IMG/VR virus record: IMGVR_UViG_3300031993_000037
Location: 1-64,000 of that record
Length of the DNA stretch: 64,000 nucleotides
Reading direction: 5' to 3' (one strand)
DNA from: a virus
Lineage: Duplodnaviria; Caudoviricetes
Under the pieces are notes generated by a model, which was given only the letters and a program-made list of their open reading frames with translations, searched no databases and was not told the DNA's origin. This document shows, in pieces, positions 1-63,138 of the stretch (within the stretch, counting starts at the first letter, position 1; each line of letters begins with the position of its first letter). Made by a program: the position numbers and the translations under genes.

Positions 1-973
1 GCACGCCTTTTGCCCAACAATACTGACCGTTATAGAGATAACGGTTTACCATGTGTAATGCGGATTTATAGGAGTTTGCTTTCATACAACGGCTTAAGAT
101 TTCTTTCTGAAAGTTCTTAAGACGTTTCTTTGAGAGAGAGATTTCAGTTCCACGAATCATAAAGCCCAGAAACTTGAAGAACCTGTCCTTACTGAGAACT
201 TCAACCTTTTTTGGATTGAGAACGAGTTCCTTTTCGTTTAATCTGCGTTCAAGAATTTCTTTCCCTTTTTCCCATTCATTTCCAATGATGAGAATATCAT
301 CCGAATATCGAACGTAGTAAACGTCAAGAAGTTTGATCTCCTCGTCCATTTCATAAAGAACTGCATTTGCCAGGAATGAAGCAACGGCACAACCTTGTTT
401 TAGTGACTGAAAGTGTTCAATGACTTCGTTCTGTTCATTCAGACATTTATCACATCTGTAATAACGTCTGAGCAAATCGACAACCGCAGATTTACCACAG
501 ATTCCTTCCACCTTATCAAATACTTCTTCAATAAACCGCAATGGAACACTGTCGAAATACTTTGATAAATCTGCCTTAATGCCGATTGTCTGTAGCTTGC
601 ATGACGAAATACGACTTACAACTTCTTTCACAACCTTGCCACATGACAGGTCTGTCTGATACGCTTTTGAACGTTCAGAAACCAATTCACCACAGAACTC
701 GAACAACATATCGTTGATGATAGACAGGATAATTCTGTCTAAGTTTTCATTGATGTATACAACACGAACTCCACCGTCATCTTTAGGAATACTCTGCTGA
801 TGTGGTGGAATAATGCCGTACTCACCATCTCGAATGAGAATGTAAAGTTCTGCTAATGTTTGGGGATTGCAATATCGTTCAAGTTCGTCATAAGGCATAT
901 TCTTATCAACTGCAATCTGAATAGCCTTTTCCCAACGTTCACGCTTGAACATTTCCTCTAAAAGTTTGTCCAT
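1..973 (-). CDS. Reverse transcriptase, 3'-truncated by window edge (unclassified-group type; not DGR-like)
   Basis: Manual translation from ATG 973 (SD AAGGAG) is open to the edge: MDKLLEEMF...IPKDDGGVRVVYI..DRII...KADLSKYFDSV...SLKQGCAVASFLANAVL...YYVRYSDDILII (YSDD at 296-307)...LNPKK...FKFLGF. These are the conserved RT motifs in the expected order. Missing from ORF track because no stop codon lies in the window. Confidence 0.95.
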   Translation of the reverse strand, partial: MDKLLEEMFKRERWEKAIQIAVDKNMPYDELERYCNPQTLAELYILIRDGEYGIIPPHQQSIPKDDGGVRVVYINENLDRIILSIINDMLFEFCGELVSERSKAYQTDLSCGKVVKEVVSRISSCKLQTIGIKADLSKYFDSVPLRFIEEVFDKVEGICGKSAVVDLLRRYYRCDKCLNEQNEVIEHFQSLKQGCAVASFLANAVLYEMDEEIKLLDVYYVRYSDDILIIGNEWEKGKEILERRLNEKELVLNPKKVEVLSKDRFFKFLGFMIRGTEISLSKKRLKNFQKEILSRCMKANSYKSALHMVNRYLYNGQYCWAKGV

Positions 974-1045
974 TACTTACTCCTTACTGTCATTACAGCT
1001 TCTTCAAACTTTAATTTGAAAATGGACTTAATTCTGAAAACTTAA

Positions 1046-1063
1046 AGACAAACTGAATTGTCT
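1046..1063. promoter_or_regulatory. Palindromic operator AGACAA-N6-TTGTCT, copy upstream of RT
   Basis: AGACAAACTGAATTGTCT; identical copies at 12504-12521 and 61813-61830, variants at 54831-54850 and 60634-60652. Confidence 0.7.
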
Positions 1064-1345
1064 CTAAGAAACCAACTCCAATTTGTCCGCGATGTGTTTA
1101 AGCGAACGTTTCAGATTTCCGCCGTCTGTTTCATGTGTACGCTGTTCCAAGTGACCACTTGCAATAACTTTCGGATAATCCTTATCGCAAATCTGCTGAA
1201 ACATTGCTTCAGAAAGAAACACAGAAAGTTCTACGTCTCCAGTCTTTGAAGCACCCTTAATGGTGATGTTTCCTCCGTATCCATCACCGAAATCTTTCTT
1301 ACGGACAACTTCGCCACCGAACGTCCATCCGTTCTTAAGAATCAT
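1064..1345 (-). CDS. Small OB-fold/SSB-like protein
   Basis: 93 aa; N-terminal N.W...G.V, V...GHLEQR.....G and IADKLEL resemble the SSB beta-strand pattern. Confidence 0.45.
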   Translation of the reverse strand: MILKNGWTFGGEVVRKKDFGDGYGGNITIKGASKTGDVELSVFLSEAMFQQICDKDYPKVIASGHLEQRTHETDGGNLKRSLKHIADKLELVS

Positions 1346-1557
1346 GAGACCTCCTCAAATAAAAACGGCTCTCGTTTTGAGAGCCGTTCACGTTCAATAA
1401 ATCTTTTACCTGCTTCCAACATCCGAGTCTTGTGTTCGGGTGGAATAGGGCAAATCCAAATTTCCAATGGGTAATTATTTCGTAAGCACACAAGCAAGCA
1501 ATTCCAAGCAACCTGGTACTCTTTTTTCATAACTACTTTCTTACTCCTTACCACCAA
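1342..1557 (-). CDS. Hypothetical early protein
   Basis: ORF track; overlaps neighbours in operon; start may be the internal MKKEY. Confidence 0.55.
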   Translation of the reverse strand: MVVRSKKVVMKKEYQVAWNCLLVCLRNNYPLEIWICPIPPEHKTRMLEAGKRFIERERLSKREPFLFEEVS

Positions 1558-1904
1558 TCTGAATAGATGAAGTGGTCATCTTCTTTTGCAGCGTCTACAA
1601 TTAGCTGTAATTTTTCGACAGTCTCTTTCAAGTCATCGAAGTAGTATTCGTCATATGCTTCGCTGCCGAAGAAGAAGCCTTGTGTTGTAGGCATAAGTTC
1701 TTCTGCAAGATTGTGATTTGCGAGAACCTTGTTGCAGTCTTCAATAAGGTCTTTCAGATTCTGAACTGTAACAACCCTGTCCGTGCAGTTATCATCGTCT
1801 TCAATGATATTATGACTTACAAGCCATCCACGAATCTGATTCGCCTTACGCCAATACATAACTTCTTCTTTCTCTTTGTTGTAAAGATACATATCCAATC
1901 CCAT
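1548..1904 (-). CDS. Conserved phage hypothetical protein (MGLDMYL...YWRKANQI family)
   Basis: SD AAGGAG precedes ATG 1904; motifs YWRKAN, GFFFGS..YDEYY and C-terminal Y.DWW are typical of a common phage family. Confidence 0.7.
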   Translation of the reverse strand: MGLDMYLYNKEKEEVMYWRKANQIRGWLVSHNIIEDDDNCTDRVVTVQNLKDLIEDCNKVLANHNLAEELMPTTQGFFFGSEAYDEYYFDDLKETVEKLQLIVDAAKEDDHFIYSDWW

Positions 1905-1914
1905 AGTTATCTCC

Positions 1915-2893
1915 TTAATAATTGGTATACATAACGATTTCTGCATTGTAGTGTGCCTGGTTACTATCTGGATGATTGATAGAGTAGAGTGATTTCAATT
2001 CCAAATAAATAACAAAAACACCGCCCAAACATTCAACTTCCTTTTTGATGAGTTTCATGTTTTCTTTGATGCAAAACTCATCTGTGAAAGCATCAGTACA
2101 CGAATATCTCTTATCATAATCGTGTCTGTCTTTTGGCCTCCAACCTATGCAAGGTGAACAGAAAAATATACTTGCGACTTTCATATAATCTCCTTAAAGT
2201 GGAAACTCGAATGCCCACATATCAATTATGTCTTTATCTTCTGAAGATAAAGACCCGGCAAGTTCTTCCTTAATCTGAGCAGCACGTCTTTTCTTATCAC
2301 GTTCTGCTTGTTCAAGTTCCTTTTCAATTTCAGTCATGCAACCACCTCGTCCTCTTCGTGAATACAGTTATAACTGCACCCCTCGAAATCTGTACCTGCA
2401 TATCCAACAGAACACTTTTTGTAGTGCTCACACTGAATATCCAACATCTTGTCGAAGTCTTCTTTTGTTCCACCGTTTTCAAGATAATTATTCAGGTAAT
2501 GCTGGTAACGAGTTTCTTTATAACAAGTACCAGACTCTGAAAAGAAACCTTTTACACCACCATAAGCGAAACATGAACTAAGCATACTTAAAGCCCAATA
2601 CATACTTTCAAGCAGCTTTACTTCAGACCAATCACCATTTCCGCAAAATGGATTACCATATTTTTCAAACCAAGATTGTCTTAGTTTATCTAATTGCTTT
2701 GAAGAGCAACCATTAGGAAATATTTCATGCATTTTCTGCATAACTAACTCCTTACAACTTCAGCATAAGTTCCGAAAAACTGTTTCTTCATTACAGAAAC
2801 ATCCAGCCACAATTCATTTTCAGATGAAAAAAGGTTGTCTGAAGTATAGACAACCTTTCCATTAACCCAAGATTTCAAAACGTATGATTTCAT
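1915..2893 (-). CDS. Four small early hypothetical genes (1915-2184, 2194-2337, 2334-2741, 2744-2893)
   Basis: Tightly packed ORFs with SD or ATGA coupling; two are <60 aa and were translated manually. Confidence 0.6.
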
Positions 2894-3513
2894 TTTGCAC
2901 TCCTTACAACTTCAACGCTGTCGAGGTTTTTAAGAGTTTCCAAACCAAGTCTATAAGGCTTGGTATAGAAACCGCCGGTTACATTATCATGCTCTGCAAT
3001 CATGTAAAGTTTAGTAGTTCGTGAACGTGTTCGATGTGGTTCAACTTTGATAAAAAAGTCTGAGTTCTCAGGTATCTTAAAACCACTTCCCCATTCGATA
3101 TGACCACGACCATTATGGCATTTAAGAACGTTGCCAATTTCAAAGTTGTTCTGCTTTTTCTTAGCAATGAATTCTTCACGACGCTTAAACCAGTCCTGTG
3201 CATACTGTTCGTCTTTGTAAGTGTCTTTAATCAAAGGTATCCATGAAGCTGGCATGTCATACTCATACGGCCCCATGCTCAATTCGATTTCCTTGTAGCA
3301 AAACTCATGTCGTTTACTGTCACGAGAACAAAGAACAACCATTGCGTAAACCTTGTTTGTTTCCTTGTTCTTGTAAAGACACCAAGTATGACCACCATTG
3401 CCAGACCATTTGAGAGCTTCATACTTACGTTCAGCACTTCCAAAAAATTCACGATTAAGAATATCCTTGTTCTTTTCAGAACTAGACCAATCAAACATTC
3501 CTGTCCAACCCAT
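2890..3513 (-). CDS. DUF6927-like phage/plasmid early protein
   Basis: MGWTG N-terminus and YKEI..SMGP..YD.P motif; SD AAGGAG. Confidence 0.55.
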   Translation of the reverse strand: MGWTGMFDWSSSEKNKDILNREFFGSAERKYEALKWSGNGGHTWCLYKNKETNKVYAMVVLCSRDSKRHEFCYKEIELSMGPYEYDMPASWIPLIKDTYKDEQYAQDWFKRREEFIAKKKQNNFEIGNVLKCHNGRGHIEWGSGFKIPENSDFFIKVEPHRTRSRTTKLYMIAEHDNVTGGFYTKPYRLGLETLKNLDSVEVVRSAK

Positions 3514-3523
3514 AAATTACTCC

Positions 3524-5527
3524 TTAAATTGTTGTGAGGTCATCGTGATAACCCGGAATACGTTCAACTTTAATCTTGTAGGCAGTTTTACCATAAAGAA
3601 TAAAGATTTCATTTTTGCCATAATCAACAAACTGGTCATTAACCTTGCTGAAATCTAACTGCGGATATTGAGTATTGCCAAAGAGAGTATCATAAATACG
3701 TTCTACGAAAGTTGTATTTCTTTTCATTGCAACTCCTTAGAACAAAATGTCCATAAGATAATCAGGTTCAAGACCTAAGTCGTTCATAAGAGCGTCTTCA
3801 ACGTCTTCTAAGCTTAAACCCATGATTGAGTCCTCAATGTCTGCCTTGAAGTCGTCAACTTCACGTTTAGCGTCTTCTTCAGACAATCCATCTCTACGCA
3901 TTAAAACTTCTGTGATACTGTCCATAACTACCTCACTTTGACATCCGAACTGTCAATCTGCTTTACGATAGTCCAATCCTTAAAGATATAGACTCCATTG
4001 TCATAGTTGGCACAATCAAGACGTTCAAGGCGATCAATGCCCATACTGAGTTCATAACCGCCAATCTCTTCACCGATAACCTGGCAAAGTCTTGCCCAAC
4101 CATAACAATCGTCTTCGGGTTTACGAACACCCTTTGACTTTGCAAGGTTAAGAAAGCTCTGAACATCTTCAGGACTTCCATGCCAATGAAGATAAATGCC
4201 GATTTCGTTTTTAATTAACGAGCCATTCTCTCTAAGAGCGTTTGTTGTTGTAATTACTGCTCTATTTCCCATAAAATACTCCTTGCCGATTTATTCGGCT
4301 AATTAAAGTGTTCTGTAATTATTTTCAGATGCCATTTCGACAATCTGCTTAGTACGTTTTTTAATTGGTGTTACTACGGCCTCATCTGTCATAAAGTTAT
4401 AGTCTACACGTCTAAAGTCAGTACCTTTCCACCAATTATCAGTTCCCCAATATCGAACAGTATCGCCACAAAAGTAGTAGTAAGTAAAAACATCACCGTT
4501 CAATTTGCCGTCAAATATTCCAAAAGTTTCAGAAATCATACATTCCTTGTCTTCCTGTGAAGCCTGGCAGAATGCAATCATGTGTTCTTCAACTTCTTCC
4601 TTGGAAAGATAACGTGACCAAGAATTAATTAATTTCTTCATACGCTATTCCTTGTTCTTGAAGTTGCAGTCGTCGAAATAGTCCGGTACTTCTACAACGA
4701 AAGCACCAGTTCCATTTGCATTAAGCCCGAAACAAACGTCTTCGGCGTAATCTCGACTTTCAAAGAAGAACGCCTTTTCGCCGTTGTTCCATTCACAATA
4801 CTTGTGCGGCACAACCTGGACTTTTGTAACATACTTGAAAGTATTGTCTGTGTTTAAGATTGCAATGACATAACGTACATTGCAAGTTGCCATTGTTCCA
4901 AATGTAGCCTTTTTTCTAGCCATATAAATCTCCTTACCGTACATTGACGGCCAATAAAAAAGGACTAGCCGTAAACTAGTCCTCGTTAAGTTCTCTTCGT
5001 GAAATCAATCTTTTCGGTGCTGAATCTGCAATTCTGTATTCCTTGATGTCGTGTCTAACATCTGCATAGGAATATTCCTTTTTGTCATATTCTGACAAAT
5101 CTTCCCAACAACCGCCGTAAAATCCTTGAATGACCCAAAGATAATTGTATTTGTTTTTTCTCATTTAGAACTCCTTGTCATCTTTAAGAAGACTGTCGGG
5201 AATATCATCGTTGTTACAGTCGCAGCCGACACCATGCCAATTAGTTCCCCAATGGTCTACGCAAAGCACAAAGCAGTCGAGAACATCGGAATAAGTAAAC
5301 AGAAGTCCAAAACTCTTTTCGAGGAAGCGGACATCACCTTCTGAAGCGTTAGTGATAAACCACTGATAAATTTCTGTTTCGTGTTCGCAGCCGTCTTCGT
5401 CTTCCCAAGTGAGAGAAGAACGGATATTATCCCAAACGTTCGGGTCAATACTTGGAACGTTATTGCACAACACAAAATCGTTATGCAACCAATGAACAGC
5501 GTTATAATAAGTTGTACGTCTAGTCAT
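3524..5527 (-). CDS. Seven small early hypothetical genes (3524-3727, 3737-3925, 3928-4272, 4303-4641, 4645-4923, 4976-5164, 5165-5527)
   Basis: Co-directional, abutting ORFs, most with AAGGAG; 3928 has MGNRAVI...IYLHWHG and 5165 has EIYQWFIT, both common phage families. Confidence 0.7.
4955..4983 (-). terminator. Intrinsic terminator
   Basis: AGGACTAG-tttacgg-CTAGTCCT followed by TTTTTATT on the minus strand. Confidence 0.75.
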
Positions 5528-5537
5528 AATTTACTCC

Positions 5538-6420
5538 TTACAAACCGAATTCAGCTAAAATTGCATTCAAGGATTTAGACTCCTTAAAACAAACATCATC
5601 TTCTGAAATCTGAGGTTCAGAAACCAACTTAATGAAATCTTCATGCGAAATGTATTCGCAAATTCCATCATTAACTTTTACCTGTGGCATAATAACTCCT
5701 TACGGTTCAAGACCGTTCCACAATAAAAAAGGCTTACACGAAACGAGCAAGCCCTAAACTAAACTCATAAAAACCGACTTCGCAGCTTTATGACTTGTAT
5801 AAAAATACTGTCTTACTTTACGACCCGACGAGTCGAAAATGGTAATGACAGAACCAACCAAACTTAAACGATAACCGTTGAAATCAGCGTAATAGTGCAT
5901 AAAACACCCCCTTTAATCAACTTCGGAAACCGACATTAAAATTCCCCATCGCTCGCTAAAGCGTGGAGATAAAGCAACGGCTTCTTCCTGAGAATCAGCC
6001 AAGAGATAATGAACACTTCTTGAGTAAACAGCCTTAAAGAGTTTCATAAAACACCCCCTTAAAGTTTCAATAAGATTTTCAAACCGTCAAAAAACTTTTC
6101 GATAACTGTTTTCTTTCTTGCATAGTTGCCGATAAGGTAGTAATCACCGCCGAGATAATAAGACTCTACGAAAAGATAACAACCGAAAAGCACCAAGAGA
6201 AAAACAGTCATAAAGATAGTGTAAAATAATCCTATACTCATAATTCACCGCCTTAAAATCTTGCATTCTGTCTTGCAAGTGCAATTTTCTTTTGAGTAGA
6301 CTCTAAAGCCATTGCACGCCATTTAGGTTTCATTTCTTCTTCTAAAGAAAGCCCCTTAAACTTAGCCTTAAAATTCTTTACCGCTAAGTCGCCCTGGATT
6401 TTCAATTCATTTTCTGACAT
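5538..6420 (-). CDS. Five very small early genes (5538-5690, 5754-5900, 5913-6047, 6059-6241, 6253-6420)
   Basis: Manual translation; each has an SD-like purine run; 6059-6241 has an N-terminal TM segment. Confidence 0.55.
5722..5754 (-). terminator. Intrinsic terminator
   Basis: GGCTTGC...GTAAGCC hairpin followed by TTTTTTATT on the minus strand. Confidence 0.65.
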
Positions 6421-6459
6421 AAAAACTCCTTACCGCTTAAAGCGGATTATTAAAAATCT

Positions 6460-6812
6460 AAAGTGCGAAAACGCACCCGGAAACAACCGCCCACTATTGA
6501 AAGTGGTTTTATCTTGCTATCGATAAAAGCTGCCTGCACGGTTGTATGTTGTAGTGTATAGTCCTACTTTGAAAAAGCTCCGCCCTTAAACGTGCCTTTT
6601 CCGTGCCTTCACGTTAACCGAAAACTTCGATTAAGGTTTTCTATACTTCCGAGAATGTTTCTATCTGGGTACATTCTAAAACCCTTGCTAAAACTTGCCC
6701 GGTAAAGTCAAAATTTAAAACCTGGCTTGAGTTTTTCTGCAATCGGTTTTACTCCGCATTCCGTTTTTGTTTCGGGGGAAAGTCCTACCGCATTCAATCT
6801 TTCAATGAAAAA
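6460..6812 (-). ncRNA. Candidate structured ncRNA, block B
   Basis: No ORF >=60 aa. Stems: AGAATGT/ACATTCT, GAAAAC/GTTTTC, AACGTG/CACGTT, ACAACCG/CGGTTGT enclosing TTTTATC/GATAAAA and CCACT/AGTGG, and GTGCG/CGCAC. Confidence 0.55.
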
Positions 6813-6914
6813 TTTCTCTTTTGTGGATTTCAACCCATTTCGAGTGTCGAAAAAATTAGCATTTAAAATGGTAACCCTAAAATGACGTTGAGAATTTTCA
6901 AATCAGATTTACTC

Positions 6915-6941
6915 GAATAGAAGTCTTAAACGGTATACCAA
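6915..6941. repeat. 27-bp inverted repeat, left arm (partner 7788-7814)
   Basis: GAATAGAAGTCTTAAACGGTATACCAA versus reverse complement of 7788-7814; 26/27 identical. Confidence 0.9.
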
Positions 6942-7071
6942 AAAGTTTGTGTCTTAAAACTTAAAACGCAAACCTTAAAAACGGAGTCTTAAAAGCAAAA
7001 ATCAAAAATCTAAATCCAGGTTTTAAATCTGGAAACCACTGCATTTTTAAGAATTTTGAAAATTCAAAAAA

Positions 7072-7112
7072 GCAAAAAAAAACGCTAGAGATAAAATATC
7101 CCTAGCGTTTTA
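7072..7112 (-). terminator. Intrinsic terminator after 7130 ORF
   Basis: AAAACGCTAG...CTAGCG followed by a long T run on the minus strand. Confidence 0.75.
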
Positions 7113-7129
7113 TTGGTACTCATCAGCAA

Positions 7130-7708
7130 TTAAGCCGATTTTTCTTTTTTGTTCACTATAACCAATTCTTTGTTATAACCTACTCCAAACATACCATTAA
7201 AAGTAGTTTTTAATTGGTTTACTTCACTTTCATTGATTGGGCGTACACCCTTGGAAATTTTCTGTTTGATAGTCTTTTTTACATTACTATCAAAGGCATT
7301 TTTTACTTCTACCGATTTTTCGGTAATAGCGTTTTTATCCCTAACAAGTATAGTTTTAATAAACTTGCTTTTAGGGAGTACGGCAAGAATAGGCTGATTT
7401 TGTTTGTTGTGAGATATAACAAAGCATCTATCAACCATAGTAACGGACAAACATTCAAAAAAGTTGATAACTTCGGCAAGTTTCAAAATCTTTGAATTGT
7501 CGTGGTAATCATAGTTACAACCATCCAAGGCTTCATAGTAAGTGTCACTTGAATATTCCATATTCAATACAAAGTTACAACCAATTCCAAGTTTTAAAAC
7601 AATGTTTGCAATGTCAACTATGGATTGATTTTTTTCACTATAACCACCCTTTGAATTTTTCAAAGTGTCAATTACCTTTACAGAACGGATAAAAATTGGA
7701 TTATTCAT
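7130..7708 (-). CDS. Hypothetical protein, first gene of the early transcript
   Basis: 192 aa ORF with SD AGGAG; enclosed by the 27-bp inverted repeats. Confidence 0.7.
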   Translation of the reverse strand: MNNPIFIRSVKVIDTLKNSKGGYSEKNQSIVDIANIVLKLGIGCNFVLNMEYSSDTYYEALDGCNYDYHDNSKILKLAEVINFFECLSVTMVDRCFVISHNKQNQPILAVLPKSKFIKTILVRDKNAITEKSVEVKNAFDSNVKKTIKQKISKGVRPINESEVNQLKTTFNGMFGVGYNKELVIVNKKEKSA

Positions 7709-7787
7709 ATTATTACTCCTACACGCTTAAAACGTGTTATATAGTGATTTTTGCTTATTAGGTAATTTACAACCGATTTTATATATA

Positions 7788-7814
7788 TTGGTATACCCTT
7801 TAAGACTTCTATTC
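7788..7814. repeat. 27-bp inverted repeat, right arm
   Basis: TTGGTATACCCTTTAAGACTTCTATTC. Confidence 0.9.
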
Positions 7815-8080
7815 CCTAGTTTCTACTTGGTAACTTACTAGCACGATTTTTCGGTTATCGGCTTAGACAATCCCTTGGCTTTCCGTAGTGTTTGACTTGC
7901 TTTCCCTTTCGGTACTCACCACTACTACTAAGTGTGGATAATCGGAATTACTCCCTAATTCAATAGGTATCATTACCCGTGTGGGTAACTCTTCATTCCC
8001 TAACCTTTACCCCGTCCATTTTCGGACGTGCTTTCAATCCCTTTCAATGTCAAAGAACTAGTTAGCATATCTATCTAACT
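7815..8080 (-). ncRNA. Candidate structured ncRNA/leader, block A
   Basis: Closing helix AGCACG/CGTGCT (8027-8032 with 7840-7845); stems CGTCC/GGACG, TTACCC/GGGTAA, GAATTA/TAATTC and GTAGTG/CACTAC; loop-E-like AGTA-CC-GAAA-GG-GAA at 7901-7916. Confidence 0.6.
8047..8058 (-). promoter_or_regulatory. boxA-like antitermination element
   Basis: GTTCTTTGACAT about 25 nt after the predicted start, directly behind a TAGTTAG/CTAACTA hairpin. Confidence 0.5.
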
Positions 8081-8086
8081 ATCTTT

Positions 8087-8115
8087 ATAGTATCACAATA
8101 TTAGAGATAATGCAA
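8087..8115 (-). promoter_or_regulatory. Strong sigma70-type early promoter
   Basis: TTGCAT-17 bp-TACTAT with extended TG and an upstream T-rich UP-like tract. Confidence 0.75.
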
Positions 8116-8691
8116 GAGAAAAAAGAAAAAAAATAAAAGAAAATATACAATATTAATACTACTATAAAAAATACTATATATATGTACAACCTACCCGCCC
8201 AGTAGGGAGAAGATAATCCGGCCGGGGGCTCTTGTCCTTCTCTGTGCGGAGTCAAATTTTTTCAAGGCCAAAATGACACAGTGATATGAGTAAAAATGAC
8301 ACAGTTATTATAAGAAGAATGTGTATAAAACTGAGGTATAAAGTGGGTAAAATGCATAAAAAGTGTATAAAAATTGTATATGAGTCTTTGGCAGGTCTAA
8401 AAAGGTATCGAAAATCACCGGGAAAATACAAGATTTTAAGCTATTTTTATGGTTTTACGGAAATAGTATGTATAAATATGCAGAAAGATGAGGTTTTATT
8501 GCATAAACGGCTGTTTTTATGGGGTGTATACGTTATATATATGCCTTATAGCAGTATATAGGCTTTTATAGGATAGTGAAGGAAGGGTAAGTGCGATGTA
8601 GATGATCGCTTATAGTCTGGAGGTAAAGGTTAGTGTGAGGGAGGGGTACCTTTATATATACGCGGAGAGGTTAGTGTGAAAATGGCGGAGG

Positions 8692-63057: not shown

Positions 63058-63138
63058 GTCAGAGTAGCACAAATGGTCTAGTGCTTTCTTTATCTCCTTA
63101 TAAAAGATTTGATGCAGGTTCGACTCCTGCCTCTGGCT
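63058..63138 (+). tRNA. tRNA-like RNA with aberrant anticodon arm (no assignable anticodon)
   Basis: Acceptor GTCAGAG/CTCTGGC, D-arm GCAC/GTGC, T-arm GCAGG-TTCGACT-CCTGC. Confidence 0.65.

Follow-up and report, generated by a model that had tools for sequence, protein, structure and literature searches.

A conserved structured RNA with a boxA-like element, predicted to head an early transcript in a phage carrying a UG27 reverse transcriptase

Layout of the locus

The window analysed here comprises positions 1 to 64,000 (64,000 nucleotides) of the Caudoviricetes record IMGVR_UViG_3300031993_000037, part of a 96-kb genome. The features described below lie on its minus strand, along which coordinates fall from the 5' to the 3' end of the RNA (Table 1). 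Read in this direction, a promoter-like site is followed by a small hairpin (H0), a boxA-like element and a branched domain, together called block A, and then by the gene of a protein of no recognised family (ORF192), a terminator-like hairpin and a second structured domain (block B). Judged from its sequence, block A is a folded, conserved non-coding RNA of ~250 nt, predicted to head a phage early operon or transcript. It occurs as a single copy, its motifs do not recur above chance elsewhere in the genome, and the block A region holds no ORF of at least 40 codons on either strand.

Table 1. Features of the block A locus in window coordinates
Feature	Position	Strand	Basis or remark
Promoter-like site, TTGCAT (8115-8110)-17 nt-TACTAT (8092-8087), TG-extended	8087..8115	-	Read from sequence
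5' terminal hairpin H0, GUUAG-loop-CUAAC	8061..8079	-	Hairpin at this place in five lineages
boxA-like GUUCUUUGACAU, then conserved UGAAAGG	8039..8058 (core 8058-8047)	-	Consensus match and lineage comparison
Block A core, multi-helix domain of 193 nt closed by P1	7840..8032	-	MFE fold and comparison
P1, AGCACG/CGUGCU	8032-8027 with 7845-7840	-	Closing helix of the domain
P2	8028-8013	-	MFE fold and comparison
Pa, enclosing Pb and Pc	7999-7995 with 7948-7944	-	MFE fold and comparison
Pb, ACAC loop	7989-7972	-	MFE fold and comparison
Pc	7967-7954	-	MFE fold and comparison
Pd, enclosing Pe	7943-7936 with 7873-7866	-	MFE fold and comparison
Pe, enclosing Pf	7925-7920 with 7890-7885	-	MFE fold and comparison
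Pf, CC-GAAA-GG hairpin flanked by AGUA and GAA	7916-7902	-	MFE fold and comparison
Conserved GAUAA	7859-7855	-	Within the block A core
3' flank of block A: AGUAGAAA (7827-7820), duplex 5' arm (7816-7788), AUAUAUAUAAAA (7788-7777)	7777..7827	-	Conserved
ORF192 gene	7130..7708	-	Enclosed by the long-range duplex
Strong intrinsic terminator-like hairpin, 15 pairs and U run	7079..7111	-	3' of ORF192, inside the long-range loop
Duplex 3' arm (6941-6915), preceded by UUUUAAG repeats pairing with the ORF192 5' UTR	6915..7020	-	RNA folding
Block B, second structured RNA domain of ~480 nt, larger and more conserved than block A	6436..6912	-	Fold and compensatory pairs
Further terminator-like hairpins	6478-6461, 4984-4960, 1389-1363	-	Downstream of 7111-7079

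Homologous loci were gathered with the enclosed protein ORF192 as the anchor. This gave seven lineages on metagenomic or viral contigs, with protein identities to ORF192 of 94% (L003/L005/L091), 62% (L006), 52% (L007) and 47% (L008), and of 43-48% for L158 and L159, which were added later. Protein and pattern scans of IMG/VR returned only three related contigs and a metagenome scan four loci, and GTDB genome scans with a block B 21-mer and an ORF192 profile returned nothing. A 15-mer scan listed ~118 loci, all of them chance matches by nhmmer except a known relative, and blastn of the region against an annotated phage collection gave no match. The A-ORF192-B arrangement is fixed in every lineage seen.

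ORF192 itself has no match in Pfam, PHROGs or PADLOC, and searches of the ESM Atlas and of PDB sequences found nothing. Its family is very small, a set of 1.8 billion proteins containing just 25 clusters of it (50% identity). An AlphaFold2 model of good quality (pLDDT 87, pTM 0.80; this was the second model, the first being poor) has no clear fold match in the PDB (none by Foldseek; Z of at most 4.4 by VIA-align).

Promoter region, 5' hairpin and boxA-like element

From the position of the promoter-like site, transcription would start at about 8081-8079. L005, L006, L007, L008 and L159 have a sigma-A-like pair (TTGACA or TTGCAT with a -10-like sequence) at the corresponding place. The preliminary description of this DNA had spoken of a strong promoter; the site is indeed present, but its strength was overstated for the window, where the TTGCAT-17-TACTAT pair falls below the cut-off of the consensus promoter scanner and goes unlisted. 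A candidate second promoter at TTGACA (8053-8048) was dropped because no -10 follows it and because L159 lacks the TTGACA.

The hairpin and the boxA-like sequence that had been proposed for the 5' end of the transcript were both found. The stem of H0 differs between the five lineages compared (GUUAGAU/AUCUAAC, UAGCCU/AGGCUA, GGUU/AACC, ACCC/GGGU), and GUUCUUUGACAU begins 3 nt past it; GTTCTTTGACAT, at 8058-8047, is the sole exact copy across the 96-kb genome. A consensus-like sequence thus lies near the predicted transcript start, after a small 5' hairpin. The match of GUUCUUUGACAU is 9/12 to the E. coli boxA GCUCUUUAACAA and 9/11 to the B. subtilis rrn boxA GAUCUUUGAAA, a Firmicute comparison that rests on the style of Shine-Dalgarno sequences and promoters only. 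In B. subtilis rrn operons a small hairpin likewise comes first, with a boxA-like NusB-binding sequence right after it, and the consensus is given as AUGAUCUUUGAAA for B. subtilis rrn and UGCUCUUUAACA for E. coli (PMC13753749).

Among the relatives, UUUGACAUNGAAAGG is invariant in five lineages and UUUGACA is kept in six of the seven, the variant forms being GAUAUUUGACAU in L007, GUUUUUUGACAU in L008, GAUUUUUGACAA in L158 and GUUCUUUAUACAU in L159. The C of UCUUU is replaced by A or U in L007, L008 and L158, and L159 has UUUAUACA. Because this core C varies and the invariant stretch sits 3' of the boxA core and not in it, the constraint on the element may be something other than binding of NusB/S10. 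Tandem AUUGAAAG-GG-AUUGAAAG repeats at 8049-8033 are conserved in five lineages and absent or altered in L158 and L159.

One further sequence touches on the boxA-like element. GUCAA(A), complementary to its UUGAC, occurs inside block A in four of six independent lineages (7892-7897 in the window), at non-homologous positions. It may offer a competing pairing that hides boxA, or occur there by chance.

Evidence that block A is a structured RNA

The preliminary description had proposed an unannotated phage ncRNA and named several checks for it, including folding against shuffled controls, covariation among homologues and a search of Rfam. The folding check went against the proposal: as a single sequence, block A has an energy no better than that of shuffles (z-scores of -0.97 for 7780-8115 and -1.36 for the closed domain). 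Comparison of homologues spoke for it, as helix positions are kept and helix sequences changed across the seven lineages, so that the helices of block A covary. Between the window and its closest relative there are few substitutions, all of them compensatory or motif-keeping (UUACCC/GGGUAA to UUAUCC/GGAUAA, GGAAU/AUUCC to GGAGU/ACUCC, and a GAAA loop to GCAA).

Because MAFFT alignments of the variable core were not structure-consistent, we used realignment to a covariance model together with a scripted hand-check of helices. The model, R1, covers the 5' half, and all seven lineages were realigned to it, with part of Pa still misregistered. In this alignment, which was fitted to the model and whose seven lineages are too few for a formal covariation test, 71% of cells pair, compared with 62 ± 3 in shuffles (1 of 500 shuffles reaches this value), and the covariation score is 0.281, compared with 0.184 in shuffles (4 of 500) and 0.05-0.18 when partners are slid by 1-3 columns. 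We regard these model-guided statistics as supporting evidence for the fold, not as proof. The RNA-like features are also strand-specific: in each lineage, folding is better for the sense strand than for the antisense strand, and the sense strand carries 12 GNRA-capped hairpins, compared with 5.3 ± 2.1 in shuffles and one on the antisense strand.

The Rfam search matched no family. At gathering scores, Rfam 15 had no match in the whole window (including ROOL, GOLLD, group I/II, retron msr/msd and riboswitch models), a search of 5500-8600 with E-values of up to 10 returned chance-level noise only, and blocks A and B of five homologous loci matched nothing. Because its helices covary and no Rfam family matches it, block A can be considered a real, unannotated structured RNA, and it appears from these searches to be an RNA family new to the databases. 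A group I/II intron or ribozyme was ruled out, with neither an Rfam signal nor flanking exons.

The MFE fold of the closed domain and the comparison of relatives agree on the helices listed in Table 1. They bear out the domain of roughly 190 nt closed by AGCACG/CGTGCT, and where at least four stems had been counted they recover P2, Pa, Pb, Pc, Pd, Pe and Pf. P1 is rewritten as CGUGUU (with a G.U pair) in L006, UAGCAAU/AUUGCUA in L008, ACGUA/UACGU in L159 and a 12-bp helix (AUGUAGAAUAGA/UCUAUUCUACAU) in L158, and it is not seen in L007. Pa differs in every lineage (GGAAU/AUUCC, GGAGU/ACUCC, UCGGU/ACCGA, GGGU/ACCC, GUGGU/ACCGC), Pe occurs as GUAGUG/CACUAC or GUUUAUC/GAUAGAC, and Pf as CC-GAAA-GG or GUG-GCAA-CAC. 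The predicted AGTA-CC-GAAA-GG-GAA is present at Pf and its flanks. Here AGUA lies opposite GAA beside a helix, as in the sarcin-ricin/loop E motif, and the match is kept in three lineages (the window, L005 with a GCAA loop, and L006 as AGUA-GUG-GCAA-CAC-GAA) and was not found at the homologous place in L007 and L008. A loop-E/GNRA motif is therefore a candidate reading, put forward as a sequence match in these three lineages.

Block B, terminators and the long-range duplex

Block B has a fold z-score of -3.2 and 11 compensatory pairs among four sequences. It shares 84% nucleotide identity with its counterpart in L007, where ORF192 has only 52% protein identity, and the three-way junction at its core (with CCGUGCAGG-AGC and the loops GAUAGCAAG and UUCAAU) survives in L158 and L159 with compensatory changes. 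Compared with block B, block A varies much more. The sequence CAUUGAAAGAUUGAAUG, similar to the AUUGAAAG repeats of block A, is invariant in block B. Paralogy of the two blocks was considered and rejected, local alignment scores not exceeding those of shuffles. A stretch of block B, GCUAAUUUUUUCGACACUCGAAAUGGGUUGAAA (6823-6858, minus strand), resembles block A from the hairpin tail through the boxA-like element in 29 of 38 columns, with a borderline score (26, compared with 19.5 ± 2.4 in shuffles). It might represent a further boxA-like site of the kind present in rRNA spacers.

The strong terminator-like hairpin behind ORF192 is conserved in six lineages, with compensatory changes in L005, L006 and L007 and also in L158 and L159. 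Together with the hairpins further downstream (6478-6461, 4984-4960 and 1389-1363), this gives at least four terminator-like hairpins where the preliminary description had counted at least three terminators, and none of the intervals between them holds a better promoter.

Blocks A and B are also connected by pairing. The 27 nt at 7814-7788 are the reverse complement of 6941-6915, and this core grows to 43-56 pairs when folded as RNA, joining the 3' flank of block A and the ORF192 5' UTR with the region of UUUUAAG repeats past ORF192. Within the 5' UTR the duplex reaches almost to the Shine-Dalgarno hairpin of ORF192, and it loops out the gene and its strong terminator. In the window its free energy is -45.4, compared with -20.7 ± 3.6 in shuffles; values for the window, L005, L006 and L007 range from -45 to -50 kcal/mol (-21 ± 4 in shuffles; 6-7 sd), and those of L158 and L159 are -89 (-64.5 ± 5.0; ~5 sd) and -71 (-35.4 ± 3.8; ~9 sd), respectively. 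The arms have unrelated sequences in different lineages, their imperfections include sense-strand G.U pairs, and the stability of the L006 duplex is 16 kcal/mol greater on the sense strand than on the antisense strand. The long-range pairing covaries in six lineages. Such a near-perfect duplex of at least 20 bp between distant segments is what an RNase III stem would look like, and it may serve as an RNase III-type processing stem. Because this covarying duplex has to form across a strong terminator, read-through of the latter would be required.

Directly after the 5' arm of the duplex, the AU-rich AUAUAUAUAAAA is found, unchanged or with small changes, in each of the seven lineages (L006 has GUAUGUAUAAAG). 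It lies ~70 nt upstream of the ORF192 start, and its candidate roles are those of a cleavage site, standby site or DNA element.

The UG27 reverse transcriptase and its template array

The reverse transcriptase (RT) at 973..1 of the window belongs to class UG27 (E = 7.6e-130), for which an ncRNA was predicted by Mestre et al. 2022 (PMC9226505). In UG27 systems, which are mostly phage-borne, the RT is accompanied by two accessory proteins and by arrayed ncRNA units of ~135-167 nt, whose central hairpins give rise to short cDNAs that start at the AUC of AUCNNNNNNNUANAG and end after UUYA. The template signature is AUCN7UANAG, and at some loci there are further units in adjacent intergenic stretches, as well as units that escape the published model (bioRxiv 10.64898/2026.09.22.753630).

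The preliminary description had listed the RT template among the possible roles of block A, and this suggestion did not hold up. The signature AUCN7UANAG is absent from the minus strand of 7709-8085 and 6421-7129; the one nearby match lies inside the ORF192 coding sequence, and the total in the window is below chance. Nor does the single copy of block A form a tandem array. Such an array lies outside the window, at genome positions 88,968-89,753 on the minus strand (L136:2969-3754), where ATCN7TANAG recurs seven times at intervals of 126-133 nt. A complete RT of 414 aa (genome 92,279-93,523) is encoded 2.5 kb upstream of this array. By motif and arrangement, block A is not a canonical UG27 RT template. 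Besides the RT, three ORFs lie upstream of the array: one of 139 aa, an HNH-like one of 244 aa and one of 322 aa.

In three lineages the module formed by blocks A and B and ORF192 precedes a UG27 RT encoded on the same strand, at a distance of 5.5-9 kb (~9 kb in L158 and L159). Because these are related phages, the linkage may be plain synteny. Window positions 1-2900 repeat genome 92,551-95,897 in diverged form, at 82% and 68% nucleotide identity, and the cut RT at 973..1 has 85% protein identity to the complete one. Because the start of the contig is a diverged copy of its own end, the contig ends appear to overlap, and the RT in the window would correspond to the locus at 92,551-95,897. The two copies are either strain variants of a circular genome joined in assembly or a real duplication. 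Elsewhere in the window, ARAGORN listed a tRNA-like gene (63058-63138, plus strand) whose anticodon has four letters (CTCC) and to which it assigned no amino acid.

A possible mechanism and its alternatives

Tentatively, we favour a role of block A as a cis-acting leader for antitermination and processing, comparable to that of an rRNA operon, because its layout resembles an rRNA leader and the duplex requires read-through. Of the roles named in the preliminary description, antitermination is thus the one that suits the anatomy best. Transcription would start at ~8080, and in the nascent RNA the terminal hairpin would form and leave the boxA-like element exposed. The element would then load host NusB/S10, with NusA and NusG, onto the RNA polymerase, while the P1-closed domain of 193 nt folds behind it and may stabilise the termination-resistant complex or extend it, in the manner of put or EAR RNAs. 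The modified polymerase would pass the terminator after ORF192 and at least three more terminator-like hairpins, heading towards small early genes and the UG27 RT system. After read-through, the 3' flank of block A could pair with the region beyond the terminator in a duplex of 27-50 bp that loops out the ORF192 mRNA, and the product would be the kind of RNase III substrate found in rRNA precursors and phage early RNAs. Nus factor binding, read-through and cleavage are the steps of this model that we infer. The order of promoter, 5' hairpin and boxA-like element counts in its favour, being the same in B. subtilis rrn operons. On the other side, a boxA alone would not need a domain of 190 nt, the core C varies, L007 is without P1, and the fold energy of the single sequence is unremarkable.

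Several other explanations would accommodate parts of these data. It is somewhat unlikely, but worth considering, that blocks A and B are the two halves of one large trans-acting RNA or RNP scaffold of ~700 nt, from which ORF192 is looped out or excised, and which could function in a manner similar to ROOL or GOLLD or as a partner of ORF192 or the UG27 system. The ornate large RNA of the preliminary description thus stays a candidate. The far better conservation of block B than of ORF192, its z-score and compensatory pairs, the covarying duplex, the many GNRA loops and the fixed gene order would all fit such a particle, but no tertiary contact between A and B was identified, the sequence similarity between them is not significant, there is no Rfam relative, and the greater variability of block A is better suited to a cis leader than to a catalytic or scaffold core. 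That ORF192 sits between A and B in every case also raises the question of autoregulation, in which ORF192 or a host factor would bind the AUUGAAAG-type repeats at 8049-8033 and control translation or stability of the ORF192 mRNA. The conservation of these repeats in five lineages, their invariant counterpart CAUUGAAAGAUUGAAUG in block B and the extension of the duplex almost to the Shine-Dalgarno hairpin agree with this idea. We nevertheless consider it unlikely, as the repeats are missing or altered in L158 and L159 and have no further copies in the genome above chance, no nucleic-acid-binding fold can be recognised in ORF192 (best Z 4.4), and block B would be left unexplained.

Two further readings appear less compatible with the comparative evidence. 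The features might act as DNA, forming a replication origin or operator cluster with ORF192 as the initiator or regulator; the 27-bp inverted repeat ends in the palindrome GGTATACC, the phased T-rich TTTTAAG repeats could be iterons, and the ORF192 model has a weak fold resemblance to the iteron initiators RepE and Pi, among many low-scoring rows. This is very unlikely, because the local helices covary with G.U pairs, the change from GAAA to GCAA keeps a GNRA loop, every lineage has its more stable fold on the sense strand (by as much as 16 kcal/mol, in the L006 duplex), GNRA caps are concentrated on that strand (12 to 1), and the arms change sequence freely, unlike a protein-recognition site. 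Block A also shares its strand and operon direction with the RT, and the extra intergenic and model-missed units of published loci (bioRxiv 10.64898/2026.09.22.753630) would leave room for a template or guide RNA here. However, blocks A and B lack the signature on the RNA strand, a canonical seven-unit array (~128-nt spacing) lies beside the complete RT, and block A is branched and unrepeated, unlike the long interrupted hairpin of a unit, and 5.5-9 kb from the RT, all of which makes a template role extremely improbable.

Returning to the cis-acting leader, a bolder version of it would treat the whole module as a phage-built mimic of an rRNA operon, in which host rrn antitermination and RNase III excise the mRNA and leave a bipartite A:B RNP of ~700 nt, possibly with ORF192 or the UG27 system as partner. 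We consider this combination speculative and quite unlikely.

Significance and comparison with known systems

Phage early transcription in Gram-positive-type hosts is poorly understood, and few examples of RNA-based antitermination are known. If the leader model is true, a boxA-like leader with a long-range processing stem would mean that phages borrow the logic of rRNA operons. Block A represents an RNA family absent from Rfam beside a larger second one, block B, both of them upstream of a UG27 RT system, and the description of the biology of such systems has only just begun; separating block A from the true template array of the RT prevents a wrong annotation. Much of the interest lies in the whole module, with its long-range duplex and block B, rather than in block A alone.

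Among large phage RNAs, ROOL and GOLLD share with blocks A and B (together ~700 nt) their size, their richness in GNRA loops and their occurrence in phages. In contrast, A and B match no covariance model and are located in a 5' leader, on either side of a protein gene. The UG27 ncRNA array resembles block A in being structured, non-coding, absent from Rfam and located in the same phage on the same strand and in the early direction. It consists, however, of tandem hairpin units of ~135-167 nt with AUCN7UANAG and UUYA, whereas block A is single, branched, without these motifs and kilobases upstream.

Closer in position are the boxA/boxB elements of lambda nut, HK022 put and the EAR element of B. 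subtilis, which, like block A, lie just past an early promoter and before terminators and act on the polymerase, as block A is proposed to do. They differ from it in that block A matches none of them in sequence or structure (Rfam negative) and no N-like protein was identified here. The put RNAs, of ~70 nt with two stem-loops, are also much smaller than block A.

The leader of rRNA operons is the known system that the favoured model draws on. It differs from the phage module in that the RNA looped out here is an mRNA with its own terminator instead of an rRNA, in that a branched domain of 193 nt follows the boxA-like element, and in that the boxA core varies among lineages. The two agree in the 5' hairpin followed by a boxA-like sequence near the start, in the duplex between the leader and a distant downstream segment that loops out the RNA between them, and in the terminators that have to be passed. 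A further role of the antitermination complex of rRNA operons is to help the leader to find its distant partner, with which it forms the RNase III stem.
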